64,000 nt of DNA from an uncultured Gemmatimonadota bacterium. GTDB lineage: Bacteria > JAAXHH01. The notes beneath the pieces are model-generated. The model did not search any database. It was not told the DNA's origin and saw only the letters and a program-made list of their open reading frames with translations. Of this stretch, positions 2,664-27,822 are shown one piece after another (within the stretch, counting starts at the first letter, position 1; each line of letters begins with the position of its first letter). The translations under genes and the position numbers were made by a program. The stretch covers positions 3,168,001 through 3,232,000 of the forward strand of contig OX638340.1 in NCBI GenBank assembly GCA_951812955.1, given 5' to 3'.

Positions 2664-2737
2664 GATATATCCTTTCATGGTATGCATCTGTTGGCAGATG
2701 GATTTGTACCGGCCGGGCCCTCGCCCGGTCCGGGTGG

Positions 2738-8901: not shown

Positions 8902-9214
8902 CGGGGTTCCTTTCGGTTTCTCGTGGGGATGCGATAAACAAACATATCGTCGAATACCGTGGCTAACCTTATACCTTTACAAGAGTGTATTATAAGACCG
9001 CCTGAACGATACATCAAGGATCAATAGGAACATGTGTGATTGCTCGTTTGTGGGTTGAAGCGAACTGTGAGATTTGGTATATTGCGGGGATCGGATTCCA
9101 GATCATACGTCTGGACGGTTTGTCCTGATTTGTTGTAGTTCACTTTCCAGTTACATGAGGAGGCATGAACACACGGCATACCGCTGATTAGTAGCAGTTC
9201 GTGCCATTTCCCTT

Positions 9215-10189
9215 TTGTTAGCGGTACAAAAGATTACCTGCTGCATTAATACTGAAGTAAGGCAACTTATCTGTGAGGTGTTTGTGGACGAGTATTCCAA
9301 TTTAATCAAAGCAATCGCTACATTTCTGTGGCCATCTCTTACTTTTGTTGTCGTTCTCATCTTCAGAAGAGAGATTGGAGATGCAATTGAGCGCCTCAAA
9401 AAAGGCAAGTTGTTTGGTCAGGAGGTAGAGCTTCATAATAACCTAGAAACATTACATCAGTCAGTATCTCGGGCATCGGACGAGGTTGCGTCACTGCCGA
9501 AGCCGAAAGAACTGGAAAACGAAGACGATGGCCAGCACAGGGATAAAGAAGACGACGAAGTGATTCGTTCAGTTATACATGAAGCGTCGCATTCTCCTAA
9601 GGCGGCATTGATGATTTTGGCTGCCGAGATAGAAAAGGAAGCCAGGTTAATTCTTGCTAGTGTCGGCAAGATAGATGGACGGTCGCACATTCCAATAACT
9701 CAGGCCATTCGTGTCTTGGATTCACACTATGGACTACCGCGTTTTCTTTCCAGCAGCCTGAACCTATTTTGGGACACTCGCAACAAGTTAATCCATGGCA
9801 GAGACACCGAAGACGGGAATGTCCTCAGTGCGCTTGATTCTGGTATTACGATTTTGAAATCGCTGCAAGCCCTTCCAAGGCAGCTAAACATCGTTTACAA
9901 AACGGGGGTACCAATCTACTCAGATCCAGATTGCCAACACGAGATTACCAATGCGACTGGAGTGATTCTAGAAAGTCGATCCAATGAATATGCGCAGTTT
10001 TGTTACAGGATTTTCCCTACAACTCGTTCACATTTTGAGGAGGGTAGATCAGTAGCCTGGGAATGGAATATGAACGATATTTGGCAAGACGCTTGGTACC
10101 GAGATCCTCTAGAACCTGGGGGAGCGATTAAACTTGCCTGGAATTCTTCCGCAGAATTTATAGGCCGTCATTTAGACGACCTTGGATAA
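9215..10189 (+). CDS. AT-rich-encoded hypothetical protein with an N-terminal transmembrane helix and a HEPN-like Rx4HG motif.
   Basis: The GC content is low, unlike the flanks. A TM segment ATFLWPSLTFVVVLIF is present. The motif LNLFWDTRNKLIHGRD matches the HEPN R-x(4)-H-G signature seen in Abi / DUF4145-type RNases. The ORF starts with TTG; a shorter product from Met at about residue 135 is also possible. Confidence 0.5.
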   Translation: MLAVQKITCCINTEVRQLICEVFVDEYSNLIKAIATFLWPSLTFVVVLIFRREIGDAIERLKKGKLFGQEVELHNNLETLHQSVSRASDEVASLPKPKELENEDDGQHRDKEDDEVIRSVIHEASHSPKAALMILAAEIEKEARLILASVGKIDGRSHIPITQAIRVLDSHYGLPRFLSSSLNLFWDTRNKLIHGRDTEDGNVLSALDSGITILKSLQALPRQLNIVYKTGVPIYSDPDCQHEITNATGVILESRSNEYAQFCYRIFPTTRSHFEEGRSVAWEWNMNDIWQDAWYRDPLEPGGAIKLAWNSSAEFIGRHLDDLG

Positions 10190-10658
10190 CTTGCTTAGTT
10201 TCACAAACAAGAAAATCCTCTGGTGCAGACTGAACCTCTGCCGGTCATAATGGGTTTGGTATACTGAGATTGAAACCCCGGTACACCGTTGAAAACCGTT
10301 CCTTTACGTATTTCGTGTTTAACTTGTTATATGTACGATTTAGGCATGTATTTGGAATGTTAATAAGTTAGCTGGTAGTCCTTCGAATCGGTATGTCAGA
10401 ATATACCATACATCCTTGCCAAAGTTGTTAATAAGTATTGTCTGTGTGGCAGTATAATTCAGTTTAAGGCGGCGTATCCACCAATAGCCTTACATTGCCG
10501 TGAAAAACAGGCTCATAAATTACGGATCAAGATTAAGAGGTATTCGGTTTTGAAGCTATAGTGAACTGATTGATATGAACGAAATTCGCATAGGTAAAGC
10601 AGATTACCGGAAGCAGTCATCAGAATAGGTTTACTACTACACAACGACTGTAGAATGA

Positions 10659-11378
10659 ATGGATTCGACGGGTCAATCGGACTGGTTAATGGCAAAATTG
10701 GACGCACACTACAAGGGACACCGTAGCCGACTCCGTGAGCGGTTCCAAAAGAGTGGATTTGGTGGATTCGCTGAGCACGAGGTCATTGAGTTACTGTTGA
10801 CGATGGCCATGACCCGTTCGGACGTAAAACCACAGGCCAAGATGTTGCTTGAGCGTTTTGGCAGTCTGCGAGGCATTTTGGATGCACCAGTATCCGAACT
10901 GCAGTCGGTAAAGGGAATTGGTGAGATTTCAGCCATACTACTGAAAGTTATCCGTGAATCGGCGACGATGTATTTATTGGAAGCATCAAAAGAAACAGAA
11001 GTCCTCAGCGATCCGGAGCGGCTCAGCAATTTCTGGCGCATGCGAATCGGCCATCTTAAGAACGAAGTGTTCGCTGTCGCTTACCTTGATTCAGCTTATC
11101 GGTTGTTGCGTAATGGCGTAGAAACGCTTCAGGAAGGTACGATAGACCGTGCAGCGGTGTACCCGCGCCGCGTCGTGGAGGCGGCACTTAATCGCCAGGC
11201 GGCGGCCCTCGTGCTCGCGCACAACCATCCGAACGGCGATGTCGAGCCGAGCGAACAGGACAAGATGATAACACGCGCCGTCACGCTTGCAGCCGAAACC
11301 ATCAGCATACGAGTCGTCGATCATCTAATAGTGTCGGCCTCGGAGACTTTCAGTTTCAGAAAAGCGGGACTGCTATGA
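10659..11378 (+). CDS. radC: RadC-family JAB-domain protein (UPF0758).
   Basis: The N-terminus has a helix-hairpin-helix (LLERFGSLRGILDAPVSELQSVKGIGE). The C-terminus has the JAB/MPN metalloprotease motif LVLAHNHPNGDVEPSEQDKMIT...VVDHLIVS. Its stop overlaps the next gene's start in ATGA. Confidence 0.9.
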   Translation: MDSTGQSDWLMAKLDAHYKGHRSRLRERFQKSGFGGFAEHEVIELLLTMAMTRSDVKPQAKMLLERFGSLRGILDAPVSELQSVKGIGEISAILLKVIRESATMYLLEASKETEVLSDPERLSNFWRMRIGHLKNEVFAVAYLDSAYRLLRNGVETLQEGTIDRAAVYPRRVVEAALNRQAAALVLAHNHPNGDVEPSEQDKMITRAVTLAAETISIRVVDHLIVSASETFSFRKAGLL

Positions 11379-14239
11379 GTATCGCGCCAGCGATCCAGAA
11401 GCACTTTCCTGAGCTTATCTACAGCCAGAGGGAGGTCGTCGGCCATCTCGACGGACCGTTGCTGGTGATTGCGGGACCGGGATCGGGCAAGACTTTCAGC
11501 ATTGTCCTGAGGGCCTTGAATCTTATGTTGCTGGAGAAGGCCGAGCCAAATGAGATTCTGCTCTGCACCTTTACCGAAAAAGCTGCCTACGAGATGCGGG
11601 ACCGATTGACTGCAGCGGCCCGTAAAGTGGCGTACACGGGTGACCTTTCCGAACTGAAGGTCTCGACCATACACGGCTTCTGCCACCGGATGCTCGCCCA
11701 ACACCGGCACAAGACTGAACTCGGGCACAACTACGAAACGCTCGACGAATTGACACAACTTCTCTTCATATTCGAGCACTTCGACGAGATCATCGGTCCG
11801 CCTATCGACGACCGTTTTCTCACTCGCTGGAAAACGCGTTGGACAGCCATTGAAGGCGTGCGTGGCTATTTTGACAAGATCACGGAAGAATTGGTAGACT
11901 CTCGCTGCCTTACGGCATCCTCCGACCCATTTTTGTCGGTGATTGGTACTGCGTATCAACACTACGAACAAGCCCTGCAAGTGGCCAACAGGATTGACTT
12001 TGCCCACCTGCAGAGAACCGTATACGGCCTGCTGGACAACTCTACGGACACCGCTGCCATTTCCACCGACGTGCGCTATCTGCTGGTAGACGAGTATCAG
12101 GACACGAACTACATACAAGAGCGGATTCTCCTGAAGTTGGCCGAACCGGGCAACAACTTATGCGTCGTAGGGGATGAGGATCAAAGCCTCTACCGTTTCA
12201 GGGGCGCGACTGTCCGTAACATCCTGGAGTTCGCACAGCACTTTCAGGAATGCAGGATCGCCAGGTTGACAACAAACTACCGGTCTCACCGCTCAATTGT
12301 AGAGCGCTACGACCATTGGATGGAGTCGGCTGACTGGTCCGATCCAGCGGGAGGTTCATACCGACACGAGAAAACCATCGTTGCTGATCCCATGGCGCAA
12401 CATCCTGACTATCCCTCTGTCATAAGCATTTGGGGAAGGAACAGGCACGATGAAGCCGACCGGTTCGCCGATCTCGTCGAGTTCCTTAAAGAGAGCGAGG
12501 TAATAGTAGATTACAGTCAGATCGCATTGTTGCTGCACAGCGTGCGCGAACAACACAGCGGCCCTTATCTGGAGGCGTTGCGGCGCAGGGGCATCCCCGC
12601 GTTCTGTCCTCGGGCGCGCGTCTTCTTCCATATACCGGAGATTCGCTATCTGATCGCCTGTTATGCCATTTTGTTCGGCTGGTACGGCGACCGGCGCGGT
12701 GATCTCATAGGCGTCGTGAAGCAACTTGCTGAGTACGTGGACGAGGCCATTATCGACTTAAGCAAGCGCTTCGTGTCCACCGACCCGCTCGCGGAGAGAC
12801 TTCAGAGTTGGACCGGCGAGATCGCGGCGCTTCAGGAAGAAGAGACGCTCGACCTGCGGCCGGCCGATTATTTCTATAGACTGATCGCACTTGATCCATT
12901 CCGGAAGGCTGTCCGAAACGAAAACACCGCACGCAACTTAGCCATTTTCTCCGAACTTCTGACCATTTTTCAAAGCTATTATCATTTTCCGGTCATTACG
13001 TACAGGAATCGCGAGTACATCCGATTTCACTTCTTCAACAGCTTCTTGCGATTTCTCCACGCTGGCGGAATCAACGAGTACGAGGATCCGGACAAGCCGT
13101 TCCCTCGGGGCCACGTGCAGGTGATGACTGTCCATCAGGCCAAGGGCCTTGAGTTCCCTGTAGTCGTTGTCGGGTCCCTTTCGGTGTCTTTAAGCAGCCC
13201 CAAGCAAATCGATCGCAACCTTATGCCATTCTATCACCGCCCGCCCTTCGAGCCGGAGGACCGGATCACGCTCTTCGACCGCATGCGGTTGCACTACGTA
13301 GCGTTTTCACGACCGGAAAGACTGCTGGTACTTACCGCGCACGAACAACCGAAAGACTACTTCTCACCCATTTGGCAAGGGCTTCCCCAGTGGCCGTACA
13401 TCCCTAAGGAAACGCTGGCCAGCCAATCCTTCGAGCGACACGAGCGTATGCCGATCAAAAAGACGTATAACTTTACGGGTGATCTCAAGGTTTACGAAAC
13501 ATGCCCTCGCCAATATCAGTTCTTCCGCGAATACGGCTTTGCACCCTCCCGTTCCGCGGAGATGTTCTTTGGACTGCTCGTACATCAGTCTATCGAGGAA
13601 ATCCACCGTATCGCCCTTGACGGCCTAATCCATACGCTGGACGACGCGCGTGTCGGCGAGTTGTTTGAAAGAACTTACCAGTTTCTAAATCTCACCGATA
13701 GGCGTCCCATTGGCGATAGAGCGAAGGAGTTGGCTTTAAAGCAGGTATTGAACTATTATCGACAGAACCAGGATGGATTGAATCGGATCATCGAGACGGA
13801 GGTGGATGTATCGCTGGAGAAAGACGGGTACATACTCGCAGGAAAGGTCGATCTTCTTCTCGGCGACGACGGCAAGTTGGAACTATTGGATTTCAAAACC
13901 TCGCCGCGTCCGGCAAGCACGCCCGAACTAATCGCCGCATACGGAAGACAACTCTGCACCTATGCGCATATACTGGAGCAACGGCACGAAAAACATGTGG
14001 ACCGGTTGCTACTGTATTGGACAGCAGAGAAATCACGGGACCAGGCGCTCATGGTCCTGCCGTTACGCCCGGAATCGATAGAGGAAGCGGGCCGATACTT
14101 CGACGAGACCGTAAAACGGATTCAGACAGGTAAATTCGTGGTAAACACACCTCCCGAAGCGAAAGTCTGCCAGGAATGCGACCTGCAGATGCTGTGTCAC
14201 GCGGACGGTGTTATAGAATGGGCGGAGGCAGTCGCTTGA
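11375..14239 (+). CDS. UvrD/PcrA-type SF1 DNA helicase fused to a C-terminal Cas4/RecB-like PD-(D/E)xK nuclease with a 4-Cys Fe-S cluster.
   Basis: All helicase motifs are present: AGPGSGKT (I), TFTEKAA (Ia), VDEYQDTN (II), VVGDEDQSLYRFRGA (III), NYRSHRSIV (IV) and TVHQAKGLEFP (V). The C-terminus has CPRQY...DLLLGDDGKLELLDFKT (D..ExK), QLCTYAHIL (QxxxY) and CQECDLQMLC (Cx2Cx5C). Confidence 0.9.
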   Translation: MSIAPAIQKHFPELIYSQREVVGHLDGPLLVIAGPGSGKTFSIVLRALNLMLLEKAEPNEILLCTFTEKAAYEMRDRLTAAARKVAYTGDLSELKVSTIHGFCHRMLAQHRHKTELGHNYETLDELTQLLFIFEHFDEIIGPPIDDRFLTRWKTRWTAIEGVRGYFDKITEELVDSRCLTASSDPFLSVIGTAYQHYEQALQVANRIDFAHLQRTVYGLLDNSTDTAAISTDVRYLLVDEYQDTNYIQERILLKLAEPGNNLCVVGDEDQSLYRFRGATVRNILEFAQHFQECRIARLTTNYRSHRSIVERYDHWMESADWSDPAGGSYRHEKTIVADPMAQHPDYPSVISIWGRNRHDEADRFADLVEFLKESEVIVDYSQIALLLHSVREQHSGPYLEALRRRGIPAFCPRARVFFHIPEIRYLIACYAILFGWYGDRRGDLIGVVKQLAEYVDEAIIDLSKRFVSTDPLAERLQSWTGEIAALQEEETLDLRPADYFYRLIALDPFRKAVRNENTARNLAIFSELLTIFQSYYHFPVITYRNREYIRFHFFNSFLRFLHAGGINEYEDPDKPFPRGHVQVMTVHQAKGLEFPVVVVGSLSVSLSSPKQIDRNLMPFYHRPPFEPEDRITLFDRMRLHYVAFSRPERLLVLTAHEQPKDYFSPIWQGLPQWPYIPKETLASQSFERHERMPIKKTYNFTGDLKVYETCPRQYQFFREYGFAPSRSAEMFFGLLVHQSIEEIHRIALDGLIHTLDDARVGELFERTYQFLNLTDRRPIGDRAKELALKQVLNYYRQNQDGLNRIIETEVDVSLEKDGYILAGKVDLLLGDDGKLELLDFKTSPRPASTPELIAAYGRQLCTYAHILEQRHEKHVDRLLLYWTAEKSRDQALMVLPLRPESIEEAGRYFDETVKRIQTGKFVVNTPPEAKVCQECDLQMLCHADGVIEWAEAVA

Positions 14240-14306
14240 TGTCCAAGGAATTCTTTATTCTCATCCAAAATCGGATGATGTTTGGCAAACCAAAAGGAAC
14301 CTGAAA

Positions 14307-16274
14307 ATGGCAAAGATCGACATCACAAAGACCGAATTGGTCTGGCCTGGAAAGTTCGATGAGGATGGAACGCTTAGGGAAGTTCCTCGGGTCAACCTGC
14401 CATTTCAAGTCATCGAAACCGTGAATGAGAGTCGTGCTACGCGCGAAGTAAAGAAAGGTACGGTGCAGGAGTCCCTTTTTGATTTCTATGAAGGTAAGGA
14501 GGGGGACACCTTTGAGGATGGATGGAAGAACAAGCTCATATGGGGCGACAATCTGCTGGTGATGGGTTCATTGCTGGAGAAGTTTGCAGGGAAGATCGAT
14601 CTGATCTACATCGATCCGCCTTTTTTTACAGGAGTTAACCAGCTAGCAACGGTGTTTCTTGGGGAGGGCAATACTGGATTTGAGAAAGAGACGTCAATCA
14701 CAGAGGATGTAGCGTATAGAAATGCGTGGCGTGACGGGGATCCGTCCTTCATGACATGGATTCGAGATCGACTCAGTCTTATGCGTGATCTTCTCAAACC
14801 GAGCGGCATTATCTTCATTAGGTTTGACCAATACTGGAGCCACAGCGTTAAACTGATCGCAGATGAAGTCTTTAGCCGGGATTTGTTTCAGAACGAGATT
14901 ACAGTGAAACGTATTTTTAAAAACGTCACAGGTCAAGGTCGCGTCTCAATTCCACTCGCTACAGATACATTGTTTTTGTACTTCCGAACCGATCAAGCGC
15001 AATTTGCAGATACCCTAGTTCCAAGGGAGAAGACGCGGCCGGGATTCTGGCGACACATGGACGATTCTTCGGGCGTCAGGCGTCCACCTGAGCGCCGTAT
15101 GTTTGGAAGAGTCTTCTATCCACCGCCTGGCAAGCATTTCAAATTTTCCCAAGCAAACATCGACAAGAAGATAGCAGATGGAAAAGTCAGACTCAATCCC
15201 AAGACTGGTAAGCCCGAGTACTGGGTCGAGGAGAGTTCAGTTAAACCCTTGAATTCGAATTGGACAGACATCCCAGGCTACTCGTTCACTACCTCCTATC
15301 CAACGGAAAATTCCGAAGCACTCCTTCAAAGAGTCATCAAAGTTGCGTCACATCCGAATGCACTCGTGGCAGATTTCTTCGGTGGTTCTGGCACGACAGC
15401 AGCAGTCGCTGAACAACTTGGCCGTCGCTGGATCACGTGCGACGTTGGTCGTTTTTCGATCCACACGATTCGGAAGCGACTGCTCGACATTGAAAACTGC
15501 CAACCCTTCGAGGTACTGAACCTTGGTAAATATGAGCGCCAGTATTGGCAGGGGGTGACGTTCGGCGGTCAGAGCAACAAGTCACTAACCGAAAAAGCAC
15601 TCTATGAGTACCTTGCCTTCATCCTTAAGCTATATGGCGCACAGCCGGTAGCGGGATTGGAACATCTACATGGGAAGAAAAACAAGGCTATGATACACAT
15701 TGGCGCGGTGGATGCCCCGGTCACCATTGACGAGATCGATGATGCTGTAGAAAATTGTGCCAAACTGAAGCAGGCTGAATTGCACGTTCTTGGCTGGGAA
15801 TGGGAAATGGGACTCCAGAATCTTGTAGTTTCACAAGCACAGAAGAAGGGCGTGAAACTAATACTCCTGCAGATACCCTTGGAAGTGATGGAGCAACAGG
15901 CCGTGGATGATGGCGATATCCGATTTTTCGAACTGGCCTATTTAAGGGCGATGATAGTAAAACCAAAGAAACTTACCGTGCAAGTTCACCTTAAAGATTT
16001 TGTCATCCCCAACACCGAACTCATCCCTGAAGAAGTGCGGGACAGGGTTACGAAGTGGTCGGACTACATCGACTACTGGACTGTGGACTGGGACTTTCAG
16101 AACGACACCTTCATGCAGGGATGGGTAGCCTACCGCACCCGCAAAGATCGAACGCTCTCACTCATTTCCGACTTTCACACTTATGAAAAGCCCGGCAAAT
16201 ACCAAGCTCTGGTCAAAGTAATCGACATCTTCGGCAACGACACCTCGCAACTTCTTGATGTCGAGGTGAATTAA
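14307..16274 (+). CDS. mod: Type III restriction-modification system methyltransferase (Mod), beta-class N6A/N4C DNA MTase.
   Basis: It carries IYIDPPFFTG (motif IV, DPPF) followed by FGGSGTTAAVA (motif I). That order is typical of Type III Mod. It lies 3 bp upstream of the res gene. Confidence 0.85.
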   Translation: MAKIDITKTELVWPGKFDEDGTLREVPRVNLPFQVIETVNESRATREVKKGTVQESLFDFYEGKEGDTFEDGWKNKLIWGDNLLVMGSLLEKFAGKIDLIYIDPPFFTGVNQLATVFLGEGNTGFEKETSITEDVAYRNAWRDGDPSFMTWIRDRLSLMRDLLKPSGIIFIRFDQYWSHSVKLIADEVFSRDLFQNEITVKRIFKNVTGQGRVSIPLATDTLFLYFRTDQAQFADTLVPREKTRPGFWRHMDDSSGVRRPPERRMFGRVFYPPPGKHFKFSQANIDKKIADGKVRLNPKTGKPEYWVEESSVKPLNSNWTDIPGYSFTTSYPTENSEALLQRVIKVASHPNALVADFFGGSGTTAAVAEQLGRRWITCDVGRFSIHTIRKRLLDIENCQPFEVLNLGKYERQYWQGVTFGGQSNKSLTEKALYEYLAFILKLYGAQPVAGLEHLHGKKNKAMIHIGAVDAPVTIDEIDDAVENCAKLKQAELHVLGWEWEMGLQNLVVSQAQKKGVKLILLQIPLEVMEQQAVDDGDIRFFELAYLRAMIVKPKKLTVQVHLKDFVIPNTELIPEEVRDRVTKWSDYIDYWTVDWDFQNDTFMQGWVAYRTRKDRTLSLISDFHTYEKPGKYQALVKVIDIFGNDTSQLLDVEVN

Positions 16275-16276
16275 CC

Positions 16277-19120
16277 ATGGCAAAAGCCGTCATCAATTAC
16301 GACAAGGAGTTGCCGGAGATTCAAGATCGGCGACCTTGGGAAAAGCCCGGATCCTACTTGGTCAAGGACGAAGAGGAGCCAACGGGTTGGCGGGAGGATA
16401 CTTCCGGCCGTCGCCCGACCAAGCTTCTGCTGGTGCCTAAAATCCGTAAGGCCGTTGATGCGTGGCGAGACAGTGGCTACAAAGGAGCATCGGAAGTCTC
16501 CCTGCGCTTGTTTGAGTATTGGTTCCATGAGGATCACAAGGTCAACGGATTCGATACGCCGTTCCGGTACTACTTCTGCCAACGAGAAGCTATAGAAACG
16601 CTGGTCTGGTTGGTGGAGGTCGCCTGCCAGCAGGACGCGATAGCGCTTATAGAGAAATATGGATCGTTCTATCAACTGGACCTTCTATCGAAAAACATTG
16701 AGTTTCAGACTACCATAGATGGCAGGCGGCAGATTCGTCGATACATACCAGAACTGGAACAACATGGCATACAGGACTTACCGTCCAAAGAATTGCGTCG
16801 CTACGCCTTCAAGATGGCCACTGGGTCGGGTAAAACCTGGGTGATGGCCATGATGGTCGTCTGGTCGTGTTTCCACAAGCAGCGCGTACCTGGTTCGAAA
16901 CTTTCCACGAATTTCCTTATCGTAGCCCCCAATGTGATCGTCTATCAGCGGCTGGAGAAGGACTTTGCAAACAACCGGATATTTAATGAGTTACCATTGA
17001 TCCCGCCGGAATGGAAAGGCAATTTTAACCAAAAGGTGATTTTGCGCGGGGAAGTCGCTGAGCCCGACCCGTCGGGGAATCTGTTTCTTACGAATATCCA
17101 TCAACTGTACGAATCTCGCGATCAGAAGTGGACCCCGGGAAACGCCGTCGAAGCCCTCCTGGGCAAGACCCCCGCGCCAGATCTCGCGGCATCTGGTCAG
17201 CGGACCATGCTGGAGTGCGTGAAGTATCTAAAAGACCTCGTCGTGCTAAATGACGAAGCCCACCACGTCCATGATGACGACCTATCCTGGAATCAATCTC
17301 TGCTGGCTATTGATAATGCGTTGCCGAAGGGACTCTGCGCTTGGCTCGACTTTTCAGCCACGCCGAAAGACCAGAACGGCATGTACTTCCCTTGGACCGT
17401 TGTGGACTACCCGTTGGCACAGGCCGTGGAGGATAGAATCGTCAAAGCCCCACTCATCGTAACCAAGGGGGATGATCCCAATCAGCCGACCGAAGATCCC
17501 GATGGGATCACTAAGGAGAACGTAGCACAGAAATACGGTTACTGGCTACAGGCCGCCGCGCAACGTTGGAAGGAACACTGGCAGATTTACAGGAAGCTCG
17601 GGACCAAGCCTGTCCTCTTTGTCATGGCTGAAAAAAACATCTATGCAGATGCCCTGGGAGAGTATCTGTGGAAGACTAAGGAATTTGGTTTCAAGGAATC
17701 CGAGGTACTCGTTATCCATACGGACAATACGGGTGAAGTTCGGAAAGGGGATATCGAGAAAGCCCGGAAGGCTGCAAGAGACATCGATAAGGCAGAGAGC
17801 AAAATAAAAGTGATCGTCAGCGTTATGATGCTGCGCGAGGGTTGGGACGTTCGGAATGTTACAGTGGTACTGGGTTTGCGCCCCTATACTGCGAAAGCCG
17901 AGATATTGCCGGAACAGGTGATCGGTCGCGGACTTCGTCTGATGACCCAGGTAAGCCCCGACCAAACGCAGACCCTTGAGGTGCTCGGAACGCGTAACCT
18001 GCTCGAAGTGCTACGCGATCAACTTGAGGCTGAGGGCGTCGGAGTAGCGAGTACGAAGGACAATACGCCACTGCCAGTCATCATTGAGCCGGTGCAGGAA
18101 CGACTGAATTACGACATCGCCATTCCAATCACGAAACCGAGTCTAACACATGATTTCCGCAAACTGTCCACCGTTGATGTGCCATCGCTGGAAGCGATTT
18201 ACGATCAGGAAGAACTGGCCGAACCGTTTCGGGTCGGTCTGAAGATGGAATTCGCAATGACGGAGACCGAGGTTCATCAAGCCGACGTTGCGTTGCAACT
18301 CCGACCTGCCCAGGAGCTTTTGGCGAGCATCGCCAACAAGACGGCTGAGCGCGCCAATCTGACTAACTGTTTTGCGGAATTGTATCCCATTATTCAGGAT
18401 TATGTCGAGAATCGTTGCTTTGGACATAAAATTGAACTGTCAGATGAAACCATTCGCTCCCATCTCGAAAGATTGGAGTTGCAGAATGGGATTGCCGGAT
18501 ACATGGCACGTAAGCTTTCGACGCTTTCCATTAAACGGCATGCAGTCGAGTTCGAGAAAGAGGATTACCGTCTTTCCCTGACCAGACCCTTTAGCTGGCG
18601 ACGCAACTTGCCACCAATGCAGGCGTACAAAACGATTTTCAACTTCGTGGCCACCTACAATGACTTTGAGCGAAGCTTTGCGACGTTCTTGGATGGAGCG
18701 GAAGATGTGGTGCGCTTTGCGGCACTTGGCACGACAGAACAAGGACGTTCCGGTACGACATTTCACATCGACTACCTGAAACCGACTGGGGCTATCGGAT
18801 TCTACTATCCAGACTGGGTAGTCGTTCAAAAGGCCAAAGATAACGAAGTGAACTGGATCGTTGAGACCAAGGGCCGAGTCTGGGAAGGAACCGCCGAAAA
18901 AGATGTCGCAGCGCGAAACTGGTGCAAGCGGGTAAGCAACGCCACGGGAAAGCCTTGGAAGTACACCCGCATCAACCAGTCAGAGTTTACGGATGAACTC
19001 GCGACGTTTCGCGCACTGATTGTAGATAAGGCGATTAAAACCTCAGTTCAACGACACGAAAACATGCAACCGGTAACGCAGGAAGAAATCCGCCGCTGGA
19101 AAGAAGAGGGCCGTCGCTGA
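16277..19120 (+). CDS. res: Type III restriction enzyme Res subunit (SF2 DEAH helicase plus C-terminal PD-(D/E)xK endonuclease).
   Basis: It has MATGSGKTWVMA (Walker A) and VLNDEAHHV (DEAH). The C-terminal segment YYPDWVVVQ...WIVETKG is the PD..ExK endonuclease motif. The protein is 947 aa. Confidence 0.85.
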   Translation: MAKAVINYDKELPEIQDRRPWEKPGSYLVKDEEEPTGWREDTSGRRPTKLLLVPKIRKAVDAWRDSGYKGASEVSLRLFEYWFHEDHKVNGFDTPFRYYFCQREAIETLVWLVEVACQQDAIALIEKYGSFYQLDLLSKNIEFQTTIDGRRQIRRYIPELEQHGIQDLPSKELRRYAFKMATGSGKTWVMAMMVVWSCFHKQRVPGSKLSTNFLIVAPNVIVYQRLEKDFANNRIFNELPLIPPEWKGNFNQKVILRGEVAEPDPSGNLFLTNIHQLYESRDQKWTPGNAVEALLGKTPAPDLAASGQRTMLECVKYLKDLVVLNDEAHHVHDDDLSWNQSLLAIDNALPKGLCAWLDFSATPKDQNGMYFPWTVVDYPLAQAVEDRIVKAPLIVTKGDDPNQPTEDPDGITKENVAQKYGYWLQAAAQRWKEHWQIYRKLGTKPVLFVMAEKNIYADALGEYLWKTKEFGFKESEVLVIHTDNTGEVRKGDIEKARKAARDIDKAESKIKVIVSVMMLREGWDVRNVTVVLGLRPYTAKAEILPEQVIGRGLRLMTQVSPDQTQTLEVLGTRNLLEVLRDQLEAEGVGVASTKDNTPLPVIIEPVQERLNYDIAIPITKPSLTHDFRKLSTVDVPSLEAIYDQEELAEPFRVGLKMEFAMTETEVHQADVALQLRPAQELLASIANKTAERANLTNCFAELYPIIQDYVENRCFGHKIELSDETIRSHLERLELQNGIAGYMARKLSTLSIKRHAVEFEKEDYRLSLTRPFSWRRNLPPMQAYKTIFNFVATYNDFERSFATFLDGAEDVVRFAALGTTEQGRSGTTFHIDYLKPTGAIGFYYPDWVVVQKAKDNEVNWIVETKGRVWEGTAEKDVAARNWCKRVSNATGKPWKYTRINQSEFTDELATFRALIVDKAIKTSVQRHENMQPVTQEEIRRWKEEGRR

Positions 19121-19542
19121 TGGCCACTGTGATCGATGCTTCGGTGATGGTAGCCTTCCTGTTACGCAACGAAGATAATAGTCGTTACGCACGACGAATA
19201 GTCGAAAGACTTGATAGGGAAGAACTGATCGTGCCGAGGATTTTCTGGTATGAAGTTCGTAATGTTCTATTGAAGGCGAAACGGAACAATCGAATTGGGC
19301 AACAGGATTTTGAAGATTGCCTGATTCAACTCACGGATGAGATTTCACCGACAGAGGATGACAGAAACGACGAAGATAGGACGTTGGACCTCGCACTACG
19401 TCATAACCTTACGGTATATGACGCAAGCTATCTCGAGACGGCCATCAGACGCAAAGCTAGCTTGGCGACCTTCGATCGAAACCTCGCGGATGCGGCCTCT
19501 AGCGAAAGAGTTGAGAATCCGGCAGTCGGTTTTAGCGCTTAG
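19120..19542 (+). CDS. vapC: PIN-domain ribonuclease, VapC-family toxin-like, with no VapB gene called on either side (see findings).
   Basis: The protein is MATVIDASVMVAFL...YEVRNVL...YDASYLETAI...ATFDRNL. It has the four conserved acidic positions of a PIN fold. Its ATG overlaps the res TGA (TGATG). Confidence 0.85.
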   Translation: MATVIDASVMVAFLLRNEDNSRYARRIVERLDREELIVPRIFWYEVRNVLLKAKRNNRIGQQDFEDCLIQLTDEISPTEDDRNDEDRTLDLALRHNLTVYDASYLETAIRRKASLATFDRNLADAASSERVENPAVGFSA

Positions 19543-20244
19543 GGCGGATGCATTCCCCAGAAAAGAAGAACGTGTCTTCCGCGCTGGTGCTGAATTCAGG
19601 ATCGCGGGAGAATCCAAAGGATGGGAAAGGGATACTGCCAGCAGAATTGCGACAGGGTAGGTATGGCAACAGGCCGAGTTCCACCGCTAATATGGAGCCA
19701 CGCCCGGAGAATGGCTTGCACACCTTTGTGAAGTTGTAGCGGTCAGTTTATGCGATGTGAACCAGCGCGGTGGATGTACTTCAGGCTAGATTATCACTGC
19801 GCGTTTATGGCGGAGGGTGGCGTTCCGGGCACGTAACCGAGTCTCTGGTAATGCCGCAAGGCGCAAGACGGGGTCCTGAAGGCCTTCCCAAGCGGGGTTC
19901 GGTGCGGATTGAAGAGGTGACTCCGGACCTGCATCAAGTTGATCCACAATCCCAACACTGGTGAATTACCCGTCCTCGGTAGCGCACCTTGGTTTTTGTG
20001 TAGCAGTTCAATTGGGAATGCTGACCTTCACTTTGTCGCTGTGCCCCTTATCTCCTCGGGCAGATCTTCAAGCGATTTGTGGTTGGAGGTCGCGAAGGGT
20101 TGACTATCTGATTCTTATCACTAACCACCGCTTCTAAACACCGTTCACCCTGTTCATAACTCAAATGTAGTCTGCAAAACGCCAGGTACGTCGCAAGACT
20201 TCAGAAACTGTTACAGAATCCGGAACAAAAAAGGGTCACCTCCC

Positions 20245-22719
20245 ATGCCGAACTACCTTCCCCTCGACCTGTCCGCCCAGTGCAACTCCGGTCTCGAAGT
20301 CCTGATGGAAAAACCCAATGCGCCCATTGGCGAACAAACCTTCCGCGGCCTGCCATTCAGGGTCGGCGAAGACCCGGCGAAGTGTTTCATCGCACTGGAA
20401 GGCGCCACGGACGGCGTCACCGTACCGATCAACAGCCCGGCCACAGGCGTGATCCTGGCCCATCGCCTGCTGGAATCCGACCTGATGGAAGGCGGCCCGC
20501 TGGGGAAACCGGTGGCGGATTACGTGTTCCGCATGGCGGGAGGTGAGAAGATCCGCGTACCCATCCGCGAGCGGTTCGAAATCGCCCATATCTCTCTGGG
20601 CGGAAAGCCTTTCGTCGCGCTTCCGGACTCCGGTCAAGTAAAGATGCGGCGCCACAGCGGGACGTGGGGCGACGCGGGACGGCGTCAGACGGAAGTTACG
20701 GGCGACTATTCCAGGGGATACTTCCTCTGGGCCTGGCGAAACCCCCATCCCGACCGGGCGATCGAATCGCTGGAAGTCATTCCAAAGGGTCCACGGTTCA
20801 TCATCGCCGGACTTACGGTTTCCCAGGCGAATGAACATCCCTTCGTCCGCCAGGGGAAACGGGAAGCGCGCCTGACCCTGACCGATCCGGAAGACGCCGA
20901 GAAGCCCTTCGATCTGAGCGTAAACGTGGACCGGGGAATCGCCTCCTACGTCCATCCCCTGCCCGAGGCTTCGGCCGATGATTTCGTCGAAGATGATTTC
21001 GCCGGGTGGGGCGAGACGCAGAACCCGAAGTCGAGCCCGGCGTACGTCGAGGTCGCCGCGATCCCTTCGGCCACGGTGACGGTGAAGCAGGGCGAGGAAA
21101 AGGTGGGCGAGGTCAGGTGGGGCGACGTCGAGCAGAAGAAGGTCGTCGAGACGCCTCGCATGAAGGTGGAACTCCTGGACCGGGGCCGGAACTGGGTGAA
21201 TGTCACGGTTCTCGACGACGATACGGGAAGGCCGGTTCCGTGCCGCGTCCACTTCCGCTCGCCGGAAGGCATTCCCTACCAGCCCTACGGCCACCACAAC
21301 CAGGTCAACTCCAATCTGGACACCTGGCATGTCGACATCGGCGGAGACCTCCGGCTCGGACAGATCACCTACGCATACATCGACGGCAAGTGCCAGGGAT
21401 GGCTGCCCCGCGGCGAGGTGATCGTGGACGTGGCGCGGGGTTTCGAGTACGAGCCGCTGCGGACCCGGGTGAAGATCGAACCCGGTCAGCAAGATCTGAC
21501 CCTGCGGCTCAAACGTTGGGTAAACATGAACGCGCAGGGGTGGTACAGCGGGGATTCCCACGTCCACTTCCTCTCCACGCAGGGCAGCCACACGGAATCC
21601 CAGGGGGAGGACCTGAACATCGTGAACCTGCTCCCGTCGCAGTGGGGCAATCTCTTCACGAATACGGAGGATTTCACGGGCCGGCCGAGTATCTCGCAGG
21701 ACGGGAACAACATCGTCTACGTCGGCCAGGAAAACCGCCAGCACTTCCTGGGACACCTCATTCTCTGGGGCCTGAAGGAGCCGGTCATGCCCTGGTGCAG
21801 CGACGGTCCGGGCGAGGCGGAACTGGGCGGTACGCTGGAAATCACGATGAGCGACTGGGCGGACCAGTGCCACGCGCAGGGCGGTTCGGTCATTATCCCC
21901 CATCTCCCGAATCCGAACGGCGAGCCCGCGGCACTGATCGCCACGGGCCGCGCGGACGGCGTGGAGATGCTACGGCACCAGCCCTTCAACCACATCGAAT
22001 ACTACCGCTATCTTAACTGCGGATATAAGCTGCCGCTGGTGGGCGGGACGGACAAGATGAGCAGCGACGTGCCCGTCGGGCTATACCGCACCTACGCCTA
22101 CATGCCCGACCAGGACTTCACCTACGACAACTGGTGCGACGCCGTGTCCAAGGGCCGGACGTTCCACAGCGGCGGTCCGATCATCCACCTCTCCGTGGAC
22201 GGGCACGACGTCGGTGATACCGTGCAGGTGTCGAGGCCCGGAACGGTGGAGGTCCAGGCGTGGTCGGAGAGCATCTTCCCGATCCATACCCTGGAGATCG
22301 TCCAGGGCGGGCGGGTCGTGGCCTCCACGGAAGACCGCAACGGCGCTCGCCGACTGGAACTGAAGGCGCGGGTGAAGGTGGAGGGGCATACCTGGCTGGC
22401 CGCGCGGTGCGCGGGTCCCGACTATTCGAGCGTGCCCCATCACGACGGCTGGGGACGGGGGATCTTCGCCCACACCTCGCCGATCTACATCGCCTGCGGG
22501 GGCGAGTGGTGGATGTTCGACAAGGATGCCGCCCAATACATGCTCACCCTCATCGACGGCGACCTGCAGTACATCCGCCGCACCGCGGCGAGGCACGAGC
22601 CCGGCACGGCCACCCATCATCACGGCGAGGAAGATCATCTCGCCTACCTGGAGAGACCGTTTGTCGAGGCCAGGGAGGCGATTCACAAAAGGATGCACCA
22701 GTTGGGGATACCGCACTGA
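20245..22719 (+). CDS. Hypothetical 824-aa protein with a PHP-like (CehA/McbA-type) metallohydrolase motif.
   Basis: The motif WYSGDSHVHFLSTQGSHTE resembles the PHP/CehA GDxHxH signature. The gene returns to high GC, so it is core-like. The long antisense ORF 20236-21903 is a shadow. Confidence 0.5.
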   Translation: MPNYLPLDLSAQCNSGLEVLMEKPNAPIGEQTFRGLPFRVGEDPAKCFIALEGATDGVTVPINSPATGVILAHRLLESDLMEGGPLGKPVADYVFRMAGGEKIRVPIRERFEIAHISLGGKPFVALPDSGQVKMRRHSGTWGDAGRRQTEVTGDYSRGYFLWAWRNPHPDRAIESLEVIPKGPRFIIAGLTVSQANEHPFVRQGKREARLTLTDPEDAEKPFDLSVNVDRGIASYVHPLPEASADDFVEDDFAGWGETQNPKSSPAYVEVAAIPSATVTVKQGEEKVGEVRWGDVEQKKVVETPRMKVELLDRGRNWVNVTVLDDDTGRPVPCRVHFRSPEGIPYQPYGHHNQVNSNLDTWHVDIGGDLRLGQITYAYIDGKCQGWLPRGEVIVDVARGFEYEPLRTRVKIEPGQQDLTLRLKRWVNMNAQGWYSGDSHVHFLSTQGSHTESQGEDLNIVNLLPSQWGNLFTNTEDFTGRPSISQDGNNIVYVGQENRQHFLGHLILWGLKEPVMPWCSDGPGEAELGGTLEITMSDWADQCHAQGGSVIIPHLPNPNGEPAALIATGRADGVEMLRHQPFNHIEYYRYLNCGYKLPLVGGTDKMSSDVPVGLYRTYAYMPDQDFTYDNWCDAVSKGRTFHSGGPIIHLSVDGHDVGDTVQVSRPGTVEVQAWSESIFPIHTLEIVQGGRVVASTEDRNGARRLELKARVKVEGHTWLAARCAGPDYSSVPHHDGWGRGIFAHTSPIYIACGGEWWMFDKDAAQYMLTLIDGDLQYIRRTAARHEPGTATHHHGEEDHLAYLERPFVEAREAIHKRMHQLGIPH

Positions 22720-24355: not shown

Positions 24356-25015
24356 ATGGAAACGAAGGAATTGAAGTTCACCGCGACGGTGGAAAAAGGC
24401 GAGGTATCGGCCTTGTTTGCCGATCCCGGCGACGCGAAAGCACTACTCGTGCTCGGCCACGGGTCGGGTACGAATATGCGGCACAGCTTCATGCAGGAGC
24501 TGAGCGACGCGTTGAACGGTGCGGGGATCGCCACTTTCCGGTTCAATTACCCCTATTCCGAGAAGGGTGGCGGCGGCATGGACGGCGAGAAGGTTCGTCT
24601 GGCCACGGTGCGGGCCGCTGTCGAGACGGCGGCGGAGCACGGTGACGGATTACCCCTTTTCGCGGGCGGACATTCCATGAGCGGCCGCATGTTCTCGATG
24701 GCCTGCGCCAACGCGCCCATAGAAGGGCTGCGGGGGATCGTGTTCGTCGCGTTTCCGCTACACGCAGGCAAGCCGAATACGGAACGGGCCGAGCATCTCA
24801 AGGACGTGGACGTGCCCATGCTCTTCCTGTCGGGCCAGCGGGACAGGATGGCCGACCTCGCGTTGCTGGAACCGGTCGTAGAGGCCCTGGAAAACGCGAC
24901 CCTTCACGTCGTCGATACGGCGGATCACGGGTTCAAGGTGCTCAAGCGCCGGAATACCGATGAACCTGTCATGGAGGAGCTGGCCAGGGTGGCGGCCGAG
25001 TGGATGGTGAAGTAG
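24356..25015 (+). CDS. Alpha/beta hydrolase (dienelactone-hydrolase/TEX30-like).
   Basis: It contains LVLGHGSGTN, a nucleophile region GGHSMSG (GxSxG) and a C-terminal DTADHGF motif. Confidence 0.7.
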   Translation: METKELKFTATVEKGEVSALFADPGDAKALLVLGHGSGTNMRHSFMQELSDALNGAGIATFRFNYPYSEKGGGGMDGEKVRLATVRAAVETAAEHGDGLPLFAGGHSMSGRMFSMACANAPIEGLRGIVFVAFPLHAGKPNTERAEHLKDVDVPMLFLSGQRDRMADLALLEPVVEALENATLHVVDTADHGFKVLKRRNTDEPVMEELARVAAEWMVK

Positions 25016-25115
25016 AGGTGGCCCGTTCGGGGATGCCCTGCATCCCATACTGAGATCGTGAAAACGGTGTAGGATGGAAGTTCTTTTTCTGTTACAGTGT
25101 TAGGTCTTACAGACA

Positions 25116-25991
25116 ATGGATAAACGATTTTCAAACATAGATTTTCCAATGGCGCAGCTAGAGGATGAACTCGCCAGAGATCATGCTGTGTTCAAGGACT
25201 TGCTTTCAACTTCTATGGCGGAAATGGTAAACCAGAATCCGCAGCTTTTTTCGCTTAAAGTCAACAACATCAATAGCGTAAAGATTTACTTCGAGTTGGG
25301 ACGATCATTACCCAAAGGAGTATTATTGGATTTCCTTCTAAAACTTCAGCAACATGTAGAAGAAGAAATGTGTTCCTCTATAGCGACTCAAACTGGAAGA
25401 CCAATATCAATAGATGAGTTAAGCGGTGTTCTTACAGTTCCACAATCAGACTACCAAATACTGCGTGATTTGCAGGAGTATTATAAATCAAAGTTAGTTA
25501 AGAACATTCAAATTGGTATGTTGGGTATGATAAGCAGAAGTATCCCTGATACTCAACAAACACATCCTGATATTGAGATCGTTATCGACCTAAAAGATGT
25601 AGGAGGAACAAGGCGGTTTTTGTACGTCGAATCTCAGGGTAAAGTACAGAAAGATCTAGTGGTCAAGCTCACATCAGTGACCCTCGATACAAACGTTTTA
25701 ATGGAATGGTGGAAAGAGCAAAAAAAGGTAGAAGTAGTAGAGAATCTTCTGACAATGGGAGAGCAATTCGAAATTGATCTTGCGGTCACAAGTAGAATCC
25801 GCGATGACGTATTTCGTCCACCCCTGTCTGACAGGATTAATGAGCTACCCAGTCTGAATGTTCAAGAGATTGGGTCTGTTATACGAATCGGGCACTGGAA
25901 GGTAGGTGTAGACGCAGTGGGCGACACGGAGTTCAGGGAATTTGTAGATTCCAATGAAGTTCAACAGAAGATTAAATATTTGATAAAATGA
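25116..25991 (+). CDS. AT-rich-encoded hypothetical 291-aa protein; the C-terminal ~120 aa have a PIN-like signature (LDTNVLMEWW).
   Basis: GC drops sharply across 25.05-26.2 kb. The C-terminal third has DTNVL, then later acidic residues (RDDV, DAVGDTE) spaced as in PIN folds. The N-terminal 170 aa match no family I know. The stop overlaps the next gene in ATGA. Confidence 0.5.
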   Translation: MDKRFSNIDFPMAQLEDELARDHAVFKDLLSTSMAEMVNQNPQLFSLKVNNINSVKIYFELGRSLPKGVLLDFLLKLQQHVEEEMCSSIATQTGRPISIDELSGVLTVPQSDYQILRDLQEYYKSKLVKNIQIGMLGMISRSIPDTQQTHPDIEIVIDLKDVGGTRRFLYVESQGKVQKDLVVKLTSVTLDTNVLMEWWKEQKKVEVVENLLTMGEQFEIDLAVTSRIRDDVFRPPLSDRINELPSLNVQEIGSVIRIGHWKVGVDAVGDTEFREFVDSNEVQQKIKYLIK

Positions 25992-26188
25992 AGCGGATTA
26001 ATAACGAACCCGATTGGCGGGATTGGGATCATGTTCATACTCATTACAGGTATAGGAGGGACTTTTTTCTTACCTGGGATAAGGGGATCTTAGCGTTCGC
26101 GGAAGAGTTTGAGAGTAAAATGGGGATTCAAGTACTGAAACCTGAAGACTACCTTACAGAATCCAAGATACAATCTTCGGGATCATGA
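25988..26188 (+). CDS. Small hypothetical protein (66 aa), translationally coupled partner of the preceding gene.
   Basis: It has a 4-nt overlap (ATGA) with the upstream ORF. The protein is Trp/His/Arg-rich (MKRINNEPDWRDWDHVHTHYRYRRDFFLTWDKG...). I recognise no family. Confidence 0.45.
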   Translation: MKRINNEPDWRDWDHVHTHYRYRRDFFLTWDKGILAFAEEFESKMGIQVLKPEDYLTESKIQSSGS

Positions 26189-26211
26189 CCGACTTCGGTA
26201 GGAGTAATTAG

Positions 26212-27585
26212 GTGGACACATTGACGGTTATTCTCTTCATCGCACTACTGGTCAGCCTTGGTCTGATAGCCGTGCTACTGTTCTGGAGCCAGAAGGCTAA
26301 CGCGCGGATCAACACGTTGAGCAGCGACAAGTCGGGCATGGAGACCGAACTGGGCTTGGCGCACGAGCAACTGGCAGAAGTACGCGAGCAACTGGCCGAA
26401 ACGAGGAAATCACTCGAAGAGGCCCGCAGGTTGGAAGTCGATCGGGCAAAGCTGCAACAGCAGCTCGCAAACGCGGAAGAACGCATCGGCGATCGTGACG
26501 AGGTGGAGAAGCGGTTTAAGGATACGTTCAAAGCTTTGTCGTCGGAGGTCCTGAAATCGCAGCAAGAGTCGTTCAAGGAGAGCGCCGAGGAAACGTTGAA
26601 AGCCCGGCAGGAGGCGGTTGAGAAGCTGGTAAAACCGTTGTCGGAGAAGATCGAGACGCTGGACAAGGCGCGAGCTAAAAACGCTGGCGAATTCCAGACC
26701 CAGATTTCGAACCTCATGCGGACCAACAAGGAGTTGGCCGAAGAGGCCCAGGCGCTGTCAAACGCGCTGAAGCGGCCCGACGTTCGCGGAAAGTGGGGCG
26801 AGACCCAGCTCGAGCGTGTGCTTGAACTGTCCGGACTGCGGAAGGACATCGATTTCACGGTGCAGGACAGCTTCAATAACGACGGAGAGCGCATACGGAC
26901 CGACGTGATCGTCCATCTGCCGCAGGACCGGACGGTGATTCTCGATTCCAAGGTGTCGCTGGCCGCCCTGATGGAAGCCTTTGAGACGGACGATGATGAA
27001 GCCAGGTCGGCAGCCTTCGATCGCCACGTAAGCCAGGTTAAGACCCACGTCGACTCTCTCTCAAAAAAGGAATACTGGAACGTCCTGGCCTCTACCCCCG
27101 ACATGGTGGTGATGGTCATGCCCGAATTCGCCTTCCTTCCCGCCATCGAAAGGGAGCCCGGCCTGACCGAACGGGCGCTGGAGAAAAACGTGATCATCGT
27201 CACGCCCCCGGCCCTGCTGGCGCTGCTCAAGGCCGTGGAGATGTCCTGGCAGCAGATCCGGGTCGCGGAGACCGCGCGGGAGATCAGCGACCTGGGCAAG
27301 GAGATGTACGAGCGCCTCGCGGTGTTCGCGGGCCACTACGTCAACGTGGGCAATTCGCTTCGGCAGGCGATTGAGCGGTACAATCGAAGTGTCGGATCAT
27401 GGGATACCCGGGTCGCCACGTCCGCCATGCGGTTCCCCGAACTGAACGTCCCCGTCACGCGGGAACTGCCGGAAGTATCTCCTGTGGATGAGATTCCCCG
27501 TACGATCCAGAAACTGACGGACGGTAAGGTGGAAGAAGGCCAGGCTGAAGACGTGGACGGGCGCGTCGTTGATAACGATGGATAG
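26212..27585 (+). CDS. rmuC: DNA recombination protein RmuC.
   Basis: It has an N-terminal TM helix, a long coiled-coil, and then the RmuC core (ALKRPDVRGKWGETQLERVLE...IVHLPQDRTVILDSK...). Confidence 0.9.
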   Translation: MDTLTVILFIALLVSLGLIAVLLFWSQKANARINTLSSDKSGMETELGLAHEQLAEVREQLAETRKSLEEARRLEVDRAKLQQQLANAEERIGDRDEVEKRFKDTFKALSSEVLKSQQESFKESAEETLKARQEAVEKLVKPLSEKIETLDKARAKNAGEFQTQISNLMRTNKELAEEAQALSNALKRPDVRGKWGETQLERVLELSGLRKDIDFTVQDSFNNDGERIRTDVIVHLPQDRTVILDSKVSLAALMEAFETDDDEARSAAFDRHVSQVKTHVDSLSKKEYWNVLASTPDMVVMVMPEFAFLPAIEREPGLTERALEKNVIIVTPPALLALLKAVEMSWQQIRVAETAREISDLGKEMYERLAVFAGHYVNVGNSLRQAIERYNRSVGSWDTRVATSAMRFPELNVPVTRELPEVSPVDEIPRTIQKLTDGKVEEGQAEDVDGRVVDNDG

Positions 27586-27822
27586 TTGATCTCGCCAGGA
27601 ATCGATTTCGTCGTTTCCAGGAAAACGCGATGCCGTTCCCCCGCGAACTCCCAGGCACGTATCCACCGGACTCCGTCAACCCTTCTTCCACGCTTGAATG
27701 ATCCTCCCACCTGCTACCTTTCGCCCCACGATCAATTTAGCGTAACATTATATTGCTTTATATTAAATATAGCGTAATTTTTATTATAAAGAGCATTAAT
27801 TTACGCCAAAAGAGGTAGAATC

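Follow-up and report, generated by a model that had tools for sequence, protein, structure and literature searches.

The stretch of DNA analysed here (the window) comprises 64 kb of contig OX638340.1 from an uncultured Gemmatimonadota bacterium. It carries a same-strand run of genes consisting of radC, a helicase-nuclease gene, the mod and res genes of a Type III restriction-modification (R-M) system, and an open reading frame (ORF) of 140 amino acids (aa) that encodes a VapC-type PIN protein. The analysis was centred on the junction between res and the PIN gene, where the C-terminal end of Res was found to hold a VapB-like segment. The features of this part of the window, all on the + strand, are listed below.

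14307-16274, + strand: Type III mod, DNA methyltransferase of 655 aa (Pfam N6_N4_Mtase, E=2.6e-30; PADLOC MTase_III PDLC03633, 348 bits)
16277-19120, + strand: Type III res, 947 aa, with an SF2 (superfamily 2) helicase-like motor, a C-terminal PD-(D/E)XK endonuclease and a VapB-like tail
19013-19117, + strand: VapB-derived tail of Res, about aa 913-947
19052-19117, + strand: profile-supported core of the Res tail, aa 926-947
19106-19109, + strand: Shine-Dalgarno-like GAGG for the PIN gene, 10 nt upstream of its ATG (read from the sequence)
19118-19122, + strand: TGATG, overlap of the res stop and the PIN start, with putative translational coupling (read from the sequence)
19120-19542, + strand: VapC-type PIN gene, 140 aa (Pfam PIN PF01850)

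A Type III R-M system is defined by a Mod gene followed by a Res gene whose product combines an SF2 helicase-like ATPase with a PD-(D/E)XK nuclease, and this is the organisation that was found, with only 2 nt between the end of mod and the start of res. Res matched Pfam ResIII (E=4.5e-19), Pfam RE_endonuc in its C-terminal part and PADLOC REase_III. Its Walker A (ATGSGKT), DEAH and PD...ExK residues were invariant in an alignment of 37 sequences in which tailless homologues were included. As the scores against the NCBIfam equivalog models fell below the cutoffs, mod-res belongs to a divergent Type III subfamily.

The 140-aa protein matched Pfam PF01850 with E=7e-19 and 69 bits (cutoff 23.6), and PIN families were its sole Pfam matches. 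An earlier note on this DNA had placed the start of the PIN ORF on the A of the res TGA and had credited the protein with all four PIN acidic residues, and both statements were confirmed: the ATG occupies 19120-19122 and the stop codon 19118-19120, and the residues are D6, E45, D101 and D119. These four were invariant in an alignment of 23 sequences and were kept in 16 of 16 Res-linked relatives. The AlphaFold model of the protein had a mean pLDDT (predicted local distance difference test) of 91.3, and its best Foldseek matches were all VapC-type (PAE0151, PAE2754, VapC20, M. tuberculosis VapBC 5x3t and FitB). The protein is classed as a VapC-type toxin, with putative ribonuclease toxicity, by its fold, by its acidic quartet and by the position of its gene directly downstream of, and coupled to, an antitoxin element, which in the present case is the VapB-type tail within Res with an overlap of 1 nt. 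A C-terminal ENPA motif of PIN was also considered as a Res-specific feature and was discarded, being present in just 7 of the 16 Res-linked copies.

The 1-nt overlap was not peculiar to the window: most pairs of PIN with a free-standing vapB had it, as did all 8 of the PIN-selected Res-PIN loci in which Res is full-length. The GAGG for the PIN gene falls within the E-G codons of the Res tail motif. A GA(A/G)GG sequence ahead of the toxin gene was found in 53 of 76 related loci, at a distance of 8 nt from the toxin start in 38 of them and of 11 nt in the other 15.

The search for a separate antitoxin covered ORFs of at least 20 aa on both strands of 18.7-20.25 kb, and those of at least 44 aa were scanned with Pfam at lenient thresholds. 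No antitoxin-family match was obtained among the ORFs of this interval on either strand; the sole Pfam match of the small ORFs was TGT_C2 (E=0.016), which was attributed to chance. A separate small antitoxin ORF near PIN was ruled out by this listing and scan, in agreement with the earlier report that no VapB gene was called on either side. A profile of full-length Phd-type partners revealed no Phd-type N-terminal DNA-binding domain in the six-frame translation of the window. It matched the Res tail alone, via its C-terminal positions 52-81, and a Phd/YefM-like domain elsewhere in the window was ruled out on this ground. In the spacer 19543-20244, neither an RNA antitoxin nor another structured RNA was detected (no Rfam match at E<=1, no tRNA), and no promoter-like site, + strand terminator-like site, meaningful repeat or family-matched ORF was found there. 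The lack of a separate antitoxin ORF speaks for a true orphan toxin, that is, a PIN protein with no protein antitoxin, tolerated through low expression or weak activity, next to a Res whose extension has an unrelated role; this explanation was judged against the partners of related PIN genes and the end of Res itself.

A total of 80 genome loci with PIN relatives were fetched, and the gene immediately upstream of PIN was compared. At 66 of them a free-standing antitoxin gene, mostly of the Phd/YefM type, abutted the PIN start or lay within ~40 nt upstream of it, and at 9 the upstream ORF was Res-sized (~946-973 aa where complete; the one in L007 is cut by the contig end). The Res-sized partners belonged to the closest PIN relatives (L001-L007, 56-69% identity) and to L009 and L024, and they had a C-terminal motif in common with nearly all of the free-standing antitoxins. 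The distant PIN relatives (35-50% identity) were preceded by a gene of ~50-100 aa, often with an overlap of 1-4 nt. Most of these small partners had a Phd/YefM-type N-terminal domain (...ITRHGKPVARLVP...), which resembled that of M. tuberculosis VapB5 (3dbo) and VapB46 (6jqy).

A group of PIN relatives from Dehalococcoidia was found to have minimal antitoxins of 51 aa, made up of the toxin-binding helix and the tail alone, with no recognisable DNA-binding domain (L010, L011, L015 and L023, at about 5850-6000; L012, L020 and L028); this length is counted from a conserved Met, and in L012, L020 and L028 translation may start further upstream. These two-gene cassettes were the closest free-standing match to the Res tail. 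In a neighbour-joining (NJ) tree of the PIN proteins, calculated with no support values, a single larger clade comprised the Res-linked PINs and the two free-standing groups nearest to them. The Res-PIN arrangement occurred in metagenome-assembled genomes labelled Latescibacterota, Gemmatimonadota, Chloroflexota, Chromatiales and Acidobacteriota (at least five phyla by label); with several phyla represented, the arrangement is not just an isolated accident.

The last 22 residues of Res are RHENMQPVTQEEIRRWKEEGRR, and the consensus of the free-standing antitoxin tails is a helix followed by ...[VM][ST]xxE[IL]xxx[RK]xEG[RH]x. A profile was made from 64 non-identical free-standing antitoxin tails, with all Res sequences excluded, and was run with filters off against the 1,794 stop-to-stop segments from the six frames of the window. 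A single significant match was obtained, and it was the Res ORF, aligned end-to-end over its final 22 residues (E=2.4e-5, 21.2 bits; next best E=0.39). When the same profile was run against 167 fetched loci (1.32 Mb, 23,647 segments), 79 matches at E<=0.01 were recorded and none was stray: each was on the same strand as the PIN or Res match, and each formed the very C-terminal end of an ORF.

The homology of the tail was also evident from pairwise and multiple comparisons. BLASTP between the Res tail and a 51-aa minimal VapB gave 11/19 identities (58%, E=7e-6), and in the multiple alignment with minimal VapBs ~33 residues could be matched, among them the helix before the motif and an Arg that is nearly invariant. 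The layout of the tail is a helix followed by EEIRRWKEEGRR, in which R939 and R947 are eight positions apart, the same spacing as in the VapB motif (PMC5389673). Two helices, 911-929 and 935-943, were predicted for the tail in a full-length model that was poor overall. A sequence search of the PDB with the Res tail gave no significant match.

By sequence, Res contains the C-terminal toxin-binding region of a VapB, with lateral helix and Arg-containing extension. The N-terminal DNA-binding and dimerisation domain of VapB proteins (AbrB, ribbon-helix-helix, Phd/YefM or MerR) is absent, and the Res endonuclease domain stands before the tail in its place. Res is therefore not a member of the VapB family; it carries just a VapB-derived segment. 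The earlier note's description of PIN as a toxin without an antitoxin partner could not be maintained, since a VapB-like element is present as the in-frame C-terminal ~35 residues of Res. The note had itself named a VapB-like ORF overlapping the res 3′ end or just downstream as the observation that would tell against its view, and a VapB-like element was indeed recognised at the res 3′ end, by the tail profile, by the ~33-residue alignment with minimal VapBs and by its co-occurrence with PIN.

To examine this co-occurrence, loci were selected through Res, which was chosen to avoid selecting through PIN; metagenomes were scanned with a Res core that lacked the tail, and exact look-ups of individual Res proteins were added. 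Res homologues numbered 7,738 proteins at E<=1e-20. Among the best 120 homologue clusters, 88 were tailed (mostly ~939-953 aa) and 32 tailless (mostly ~917-931 aa), so that tailed Res is common in metagenomes. Tailless Res proteins end in ...RINQTDFDAQKARGLSDLS, are 74-76% identical to the Res of the window and are typically ~919 aa long, as against ~947 for tailed ones. At the Res-selected loci, a PIN gene stood at or overlapped the res stop in 7 of 7 cases with tailed Res (four tail sub-classes), whereas none was present within 800 bp downstream in any of the 80 cases with tailless Res; the naive Fisher p is ~2e-10, for loci that are not phylogenetically independent. In a midpoint-rooted NJ tree of the Res cores, again with no support values, the tailless clade was nested among tailed clades. 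No conclusion on gain versus loss, or on a single origin of the fusion, was drawn from these trees, whose rooting is uncertain.

A variant of the tail end was also encountered. In one tail class, seen in L082 (8850-8862), the Res stop is shifted, the protein ends in ...EGRREWLL and the overlap with the PIN start is 13 nt instead of 1. Such a shifted stop was present in 7 of the best 120 Res clusters (P0141, P0144, P0158, P0160, P0163 and P0185 with EWLL; P0197 with EWPL).

These results bear directly on the orphan explanation. Besides the lack of a separate antitoxin ORF, the shortness of the profile match (22 aa, 21 bits) can be cited for it. On the other hand, the tail was the sole significant profile match in the window, with no stray matches in 1.3 Mb, it takes the very place that the end of vapB has in canonical pairs, the 1-nt overlap included, and its co-occurrence with PIN was perfect (7/7 versus 0/80). 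We consider it very improbable that PIN is a true orphan. The broader suggestion of the note, a toxin tied to the restriction enzyme as an abortive-infection back-up or an addiction device, was retained and can be made more specific, as the coupling now seems probably physical and goes beyond the co-expression that had been proposed.

The antitoxin might also be a smaller product than full-length Res, namely an 18-aa peptide, MQPVTQEEIRRWKEEGRR, initiated at the in-frame ATG 19064 inside res. In all of the closest clade a Met does stand three residues ahead of V-T-Q, and in other clades it takes up the first position of this motif; the Met is also where one public gene call, P0062, begins, in an assembly with a frameshift. 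No Shine-Dalgarno-like sequence was found before ATG 19064, however, and Met is not the majority residue of that column in the free-standing tails. Moreover, the homology to free-standing antitoxins reaches ~15 residues further upstream, into the region of helix 911-929, and because the tailless Res proteins stop just before the segment, the whole tail segment behaves as a single fused unit. A separately initiated micro-antitoxin is, in our estimate, improbable.

P0062 (ENA, 161 aa) deserves a separate remark. The call reads MQPVTQEEIRRWKEEG-PAL-MATVIDAS..., with the last 16 tail residues joined to PIN in one frame, and a second frameshift lies near the PIN C-terminus. The read-through is probably an assembly error, and the sequence would be usable as a single-chain proxy for modelling the contact between tail and PIN.

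The tail was found to be under selection at the protein level: over its last 22 codons, the nonsynonymous value pN was 0.35 and the synonymous value pS 0.80 (78 pairs), with synonymous sites near saturation. This bears on the idea of a decaying relic, in which the fusion of a vapBC cassette to res was an accident and both tail and PIN are now functionless and heading for loss. The tailless clade nested among tailed ones in the Res tree is consistent with loss, and a few tails carry G-to-D or R-to-L changes in the motif. Against this, the motif was kept while the synonymous sites of the tail became saturated, tail and PIN persist over Res lineages whose tail-less cores are ~63-70% identical and which span several phyla, and the four catalytic residues were kept in 16 of 16 copies. 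Decay of a functionless fusion is extremely unlikely on these grounds.

The reading that we favour, and hold to be probable, is that a Type III mod-res operon absorbed a vapBC cassette, that the toxin-binding end of VapB was fused in-frame to Res, and that Res would neutralise PIN. In solved VapBC complexes, the VapB N-terminal domain binds DNA and the C-terminal region alone contacts VapC; the lateral helix packs on VapC, the extended segment lies in the groove of the VapC dimer, and Arg residues 8 positions apart reach both VapC active sites (PMC5389673). As the Res tail has the same layout as the VapB C-terminal region, we infer that the tail binds PIN and blocks it.

The proposed course of events is as follows. 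A vapBC cassette would have been fused in-frame to res with loss of the DNA-binding half of the antitoxin, leaving the ‘lateral’ helix and the Arg-rich terminal motif attached to the end of the Res endonuclease domain. PIN would be translated from the next cistron, the TGATG overlap and the Shine-Dalgarno sequence inside the tail codons coupling its translation to the completion of Res. The Res tail would then bind PIN, probably as a dimer, and occlude its acidic active site in the manner of VapB tails; with two Arg 8 apart, one tail could plug both sites of the dimer to give a Res:PIN2 particle. Res would in this way serve as antitoxin and tether at once, with toxin and restriction enzyme made in fixed proportion. 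Because the DNA-binding domain is missing, autoregulation of the toxin-antitoxin (TA) type was presumably lost and replaced by the control of the R-M operon. PIN would be freed once the supply of tail stopped or the tail was removed, the candidate triggers being phage shut-off of host expression, tail proteolysis, an attack on Res, island loss and a truncating res mutation. The freed toxin would arrest growth, and the outcome could be a second, abortive-infection line behind restriction, enforcement of the R-M locus, or both.

Several points weigh against this reading. Binding, neutralisation, toxicity, trigger and biological role are all deduced from sequence. The tails used for the profile were chosen by a loose pattern (G[RHLQ] near the C-terminus) that 76 of 81 sequences passed (the 80 loci and the window), which introduces a slight circularity for the EG[RH] positions. 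Because GA(A/G)GG precedes the toxin start by 8-11 nt in most loci, part of the conservation of E-G, the most strongly conserved residues of the tail, may reflect selection on the ribosome-binding site of the toxin and not protein contacts. The first Arg of the two-Arg motif was not conserved in every tail class. The full-length Res model was poor (pLDDT 52), too poor for the tail to be placed with respect to the nuclease domain.

A different use of the same contact was also considered, in which a PIN dimer is brought in by the tail to take part in restriction itself, either bridging two Res or cutting phage RNA or flap DNA, much as PcrIIC1 dimers boost Cas9. VapC proteins are dimeric and Type III cleavage requires two cooperating enzyme complexes, which would suit such an accessory nuclease or adaptor. 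The PIN model gave a weak Foldseek match to PcrIIC1 in the Cas9 complex (8wmm_G, E=7.6e-4), and the catalytic residues of PIN are conserved. However, the recruiting peptide would derive from an inhibitory antitoxin segment, which in solved complexes covers the active sites of VapC (PMC5389673). Among free-standing relatives, the nearest are plain two-gene vapBC cassettes, and tailless Res homologues at ~75% identity do without PIN. An accessory role in restriction is rather unlikely in our opinion.

If Res neutralises PIN as we favour, a further step can be put forward tentatively, with less than even confidence. Since the ribosome reaches the putative neutralising peptide only at the end of Res, the toxin would be silent only while intact, full-length Res is being made, and Res as antitoxin would act as a dead-man's switch. 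Should this be true, shut-off, degradation or hijacking of Res by a phage would lead to arrest or death of the cell, as an abortive-infection back-up of the PrrC type. Any frameshift, nonsense mutation, insertion or deletion that truncates res would also be penalised, and the R-M element would police its own integrity.

The res-PIN junction lies at the right end of a low-GC block of ~9000-20250 (43-55% GC versus 60-65% in the flanks). Because of this difference from the surroundings, the block at ~9-20.2 kb is probably an acquired island; no flanking direct repeats and no tRNA gene were found for it. The remaining features of the block that were recognised are given below.

10659-11378, + strand: radC (Pfam RadC)
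11375-14239, + strand: UvrD-type helicase fused to a PD-(D/E)XK nuclease, 954 aa (Pfam UvrD-helicase, PDDEXK_1)
19543-20244 (~700 bp), no strand assigned: spacer without recognised features, at the right margin of the low-GC island, GC ~52% versus ~62-65% in the flanks

The radC and helicase-nuclease genes overlap each other by 4 nt and stand directly upstream of mod-res. The nuclease part of the helicase-nuclease is PD-(D/E)XK/Cas4-like, and the top PADLOC matches of the helicase were GajB-like and DRT-associated helicase models. The helicase-nuclease was also found 5′ of mod-res in L081, with tailless Res (positions 1-3450), and in L167, with tailed Res (1-554); radC was likewise present in L081, and it stood near mod-res with no helicase-nuclease in L082 and L083. 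The radC, helicase-nuclease and mod-res genes may make up a larger conserved defence module.

Other observations were made in the same neighbourhood and in related loci. A 324-aa ORF inside the low-GC island (9215-10189) had no Pfam or PADLOC match. In several related loci a 111-aa nucleotidyltransferase gene (NTP_transf_2, MNT-antitoxin-like), which the window does not have, was inserted between mod and res (L081 5581-5916, L082 5594-5929, L164 2040-2375, L165 1921-2256 and L083 2228-2563), and no obvious HEPN partner was called adjacent to it. A second low-GC patch was seen at 25000-29100 of the window (41% GC at 25-26 kb), with a 291-aa ORF of no assignment (25116-25991), rmuC (26212-27585) and a gene for an AAA_14/DUF4143 ATPase (27823-29076). 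A 555-aa ORF (20236-21903, - strand) runs antisense within the 824-aa gene of a CehA/McbA-family metallohydrolase (20245-22719, + strand); spurious long ORFs commonly look like this when GC is high, and many similar overlapping pairs were present in the window.

The architecture of a Res with a VapB tail followed by PIN is, judged from the sequences collected here, widespread and apparently undescribed; in a full-text literature search, in which not all journals were covered, neither a Res-VapB fusion nor coupling of a VapC to Type III R-M was found described. It would be a natural case in which the neutralising peptide of an antitoxin has been moved onto a working immune enzyme, so that R-M and TA are welded into one unit. 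It would also provide a testable route by which R-M loci could be coordinated with abortive-infection toxins and could resist decay. Seemingly “orphan” toxins beside other large defence genes may likewise have fused antitoxin segments that gene-by-gene annotation has overlooked. The ~35-residue tail is, in addition, a candidate portable tag with which VapC-type nucleases might be tethered or inhibited.

Among known systems, VapBC of the Phd/YefM type (M. tuberculosis VapBC-5 and VapBC-46) resembles the present locus in having a ~140-aa PIN protein with four acidic residues, preceded immediately by the C-terminal helix and Arg-rich tail of the antitoxin, with a stop/start overlap of 1-4 nt. It differs in that no antitoxin gene and no DNA-binding or dimerisation domain exists here, the toxin-binding segment being the C-terminus of a 947-aa Res; TA transcriptional autoregulation is presumably lost, and expression would follow the R-M operon.

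The closest precedent in logic is the anticodon nuclease (ACNase) PrrC, which is described as being held latent by the Type Ic R-M enzyme EcoprrI and switched on by a phage T4-encoded EcoprrI inhibitor (PMC1484252). Both loci place an RNase-type toxin in an R-M locus and would silence it by association with the restriction enzyme, as is proposed here. PrrC, however, is an ABC-ATPase/ACNase with a Type I partner and no antitoxin-derived peptide, whereas the present system pairs a PIN protein with a Type III enzyme; the 140 aa of PIN form a PIN domain alone, so that the resemblance to PrrC is one of logic and not of homology, and activation by anti-restriction is hypothetical for Res-PIN.

In PARIS, AriA and AriB are reported to form one immune complex, in which viral proteins activate tRNA degradation (PMC10802454, PMC11464382). 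The likeness lies in the pairing of a nuclease effector, the Toprim tRNA nuclease AriB, with a larger immune protein, the ATPase scaffold AriA; the protein families are unrelated, and the AriA scaffold is a dedicated sensor and not a working restriction enzyme. AriA sequesters AriB, which is set free when the anti-restriction protein Ocr binds. As portrayed in the cited reports, neither PrrC nor PARIS involves a PIN protein, a Type III enzyme or an antitoxin-derived peptide. Finally, in CapRel(SJ46) toxin and cognate antitoxin form a single fused protein whose antitoxin part senses a phage capsid protein, so that there, too, an antitoxin element is covalently joined to a functional protein and forms the control point for toxin release; in the present system, by contrast, the antitoxin segment would be carried by a third-party enzyme, Res, and the toxin is a separate polypeptide.

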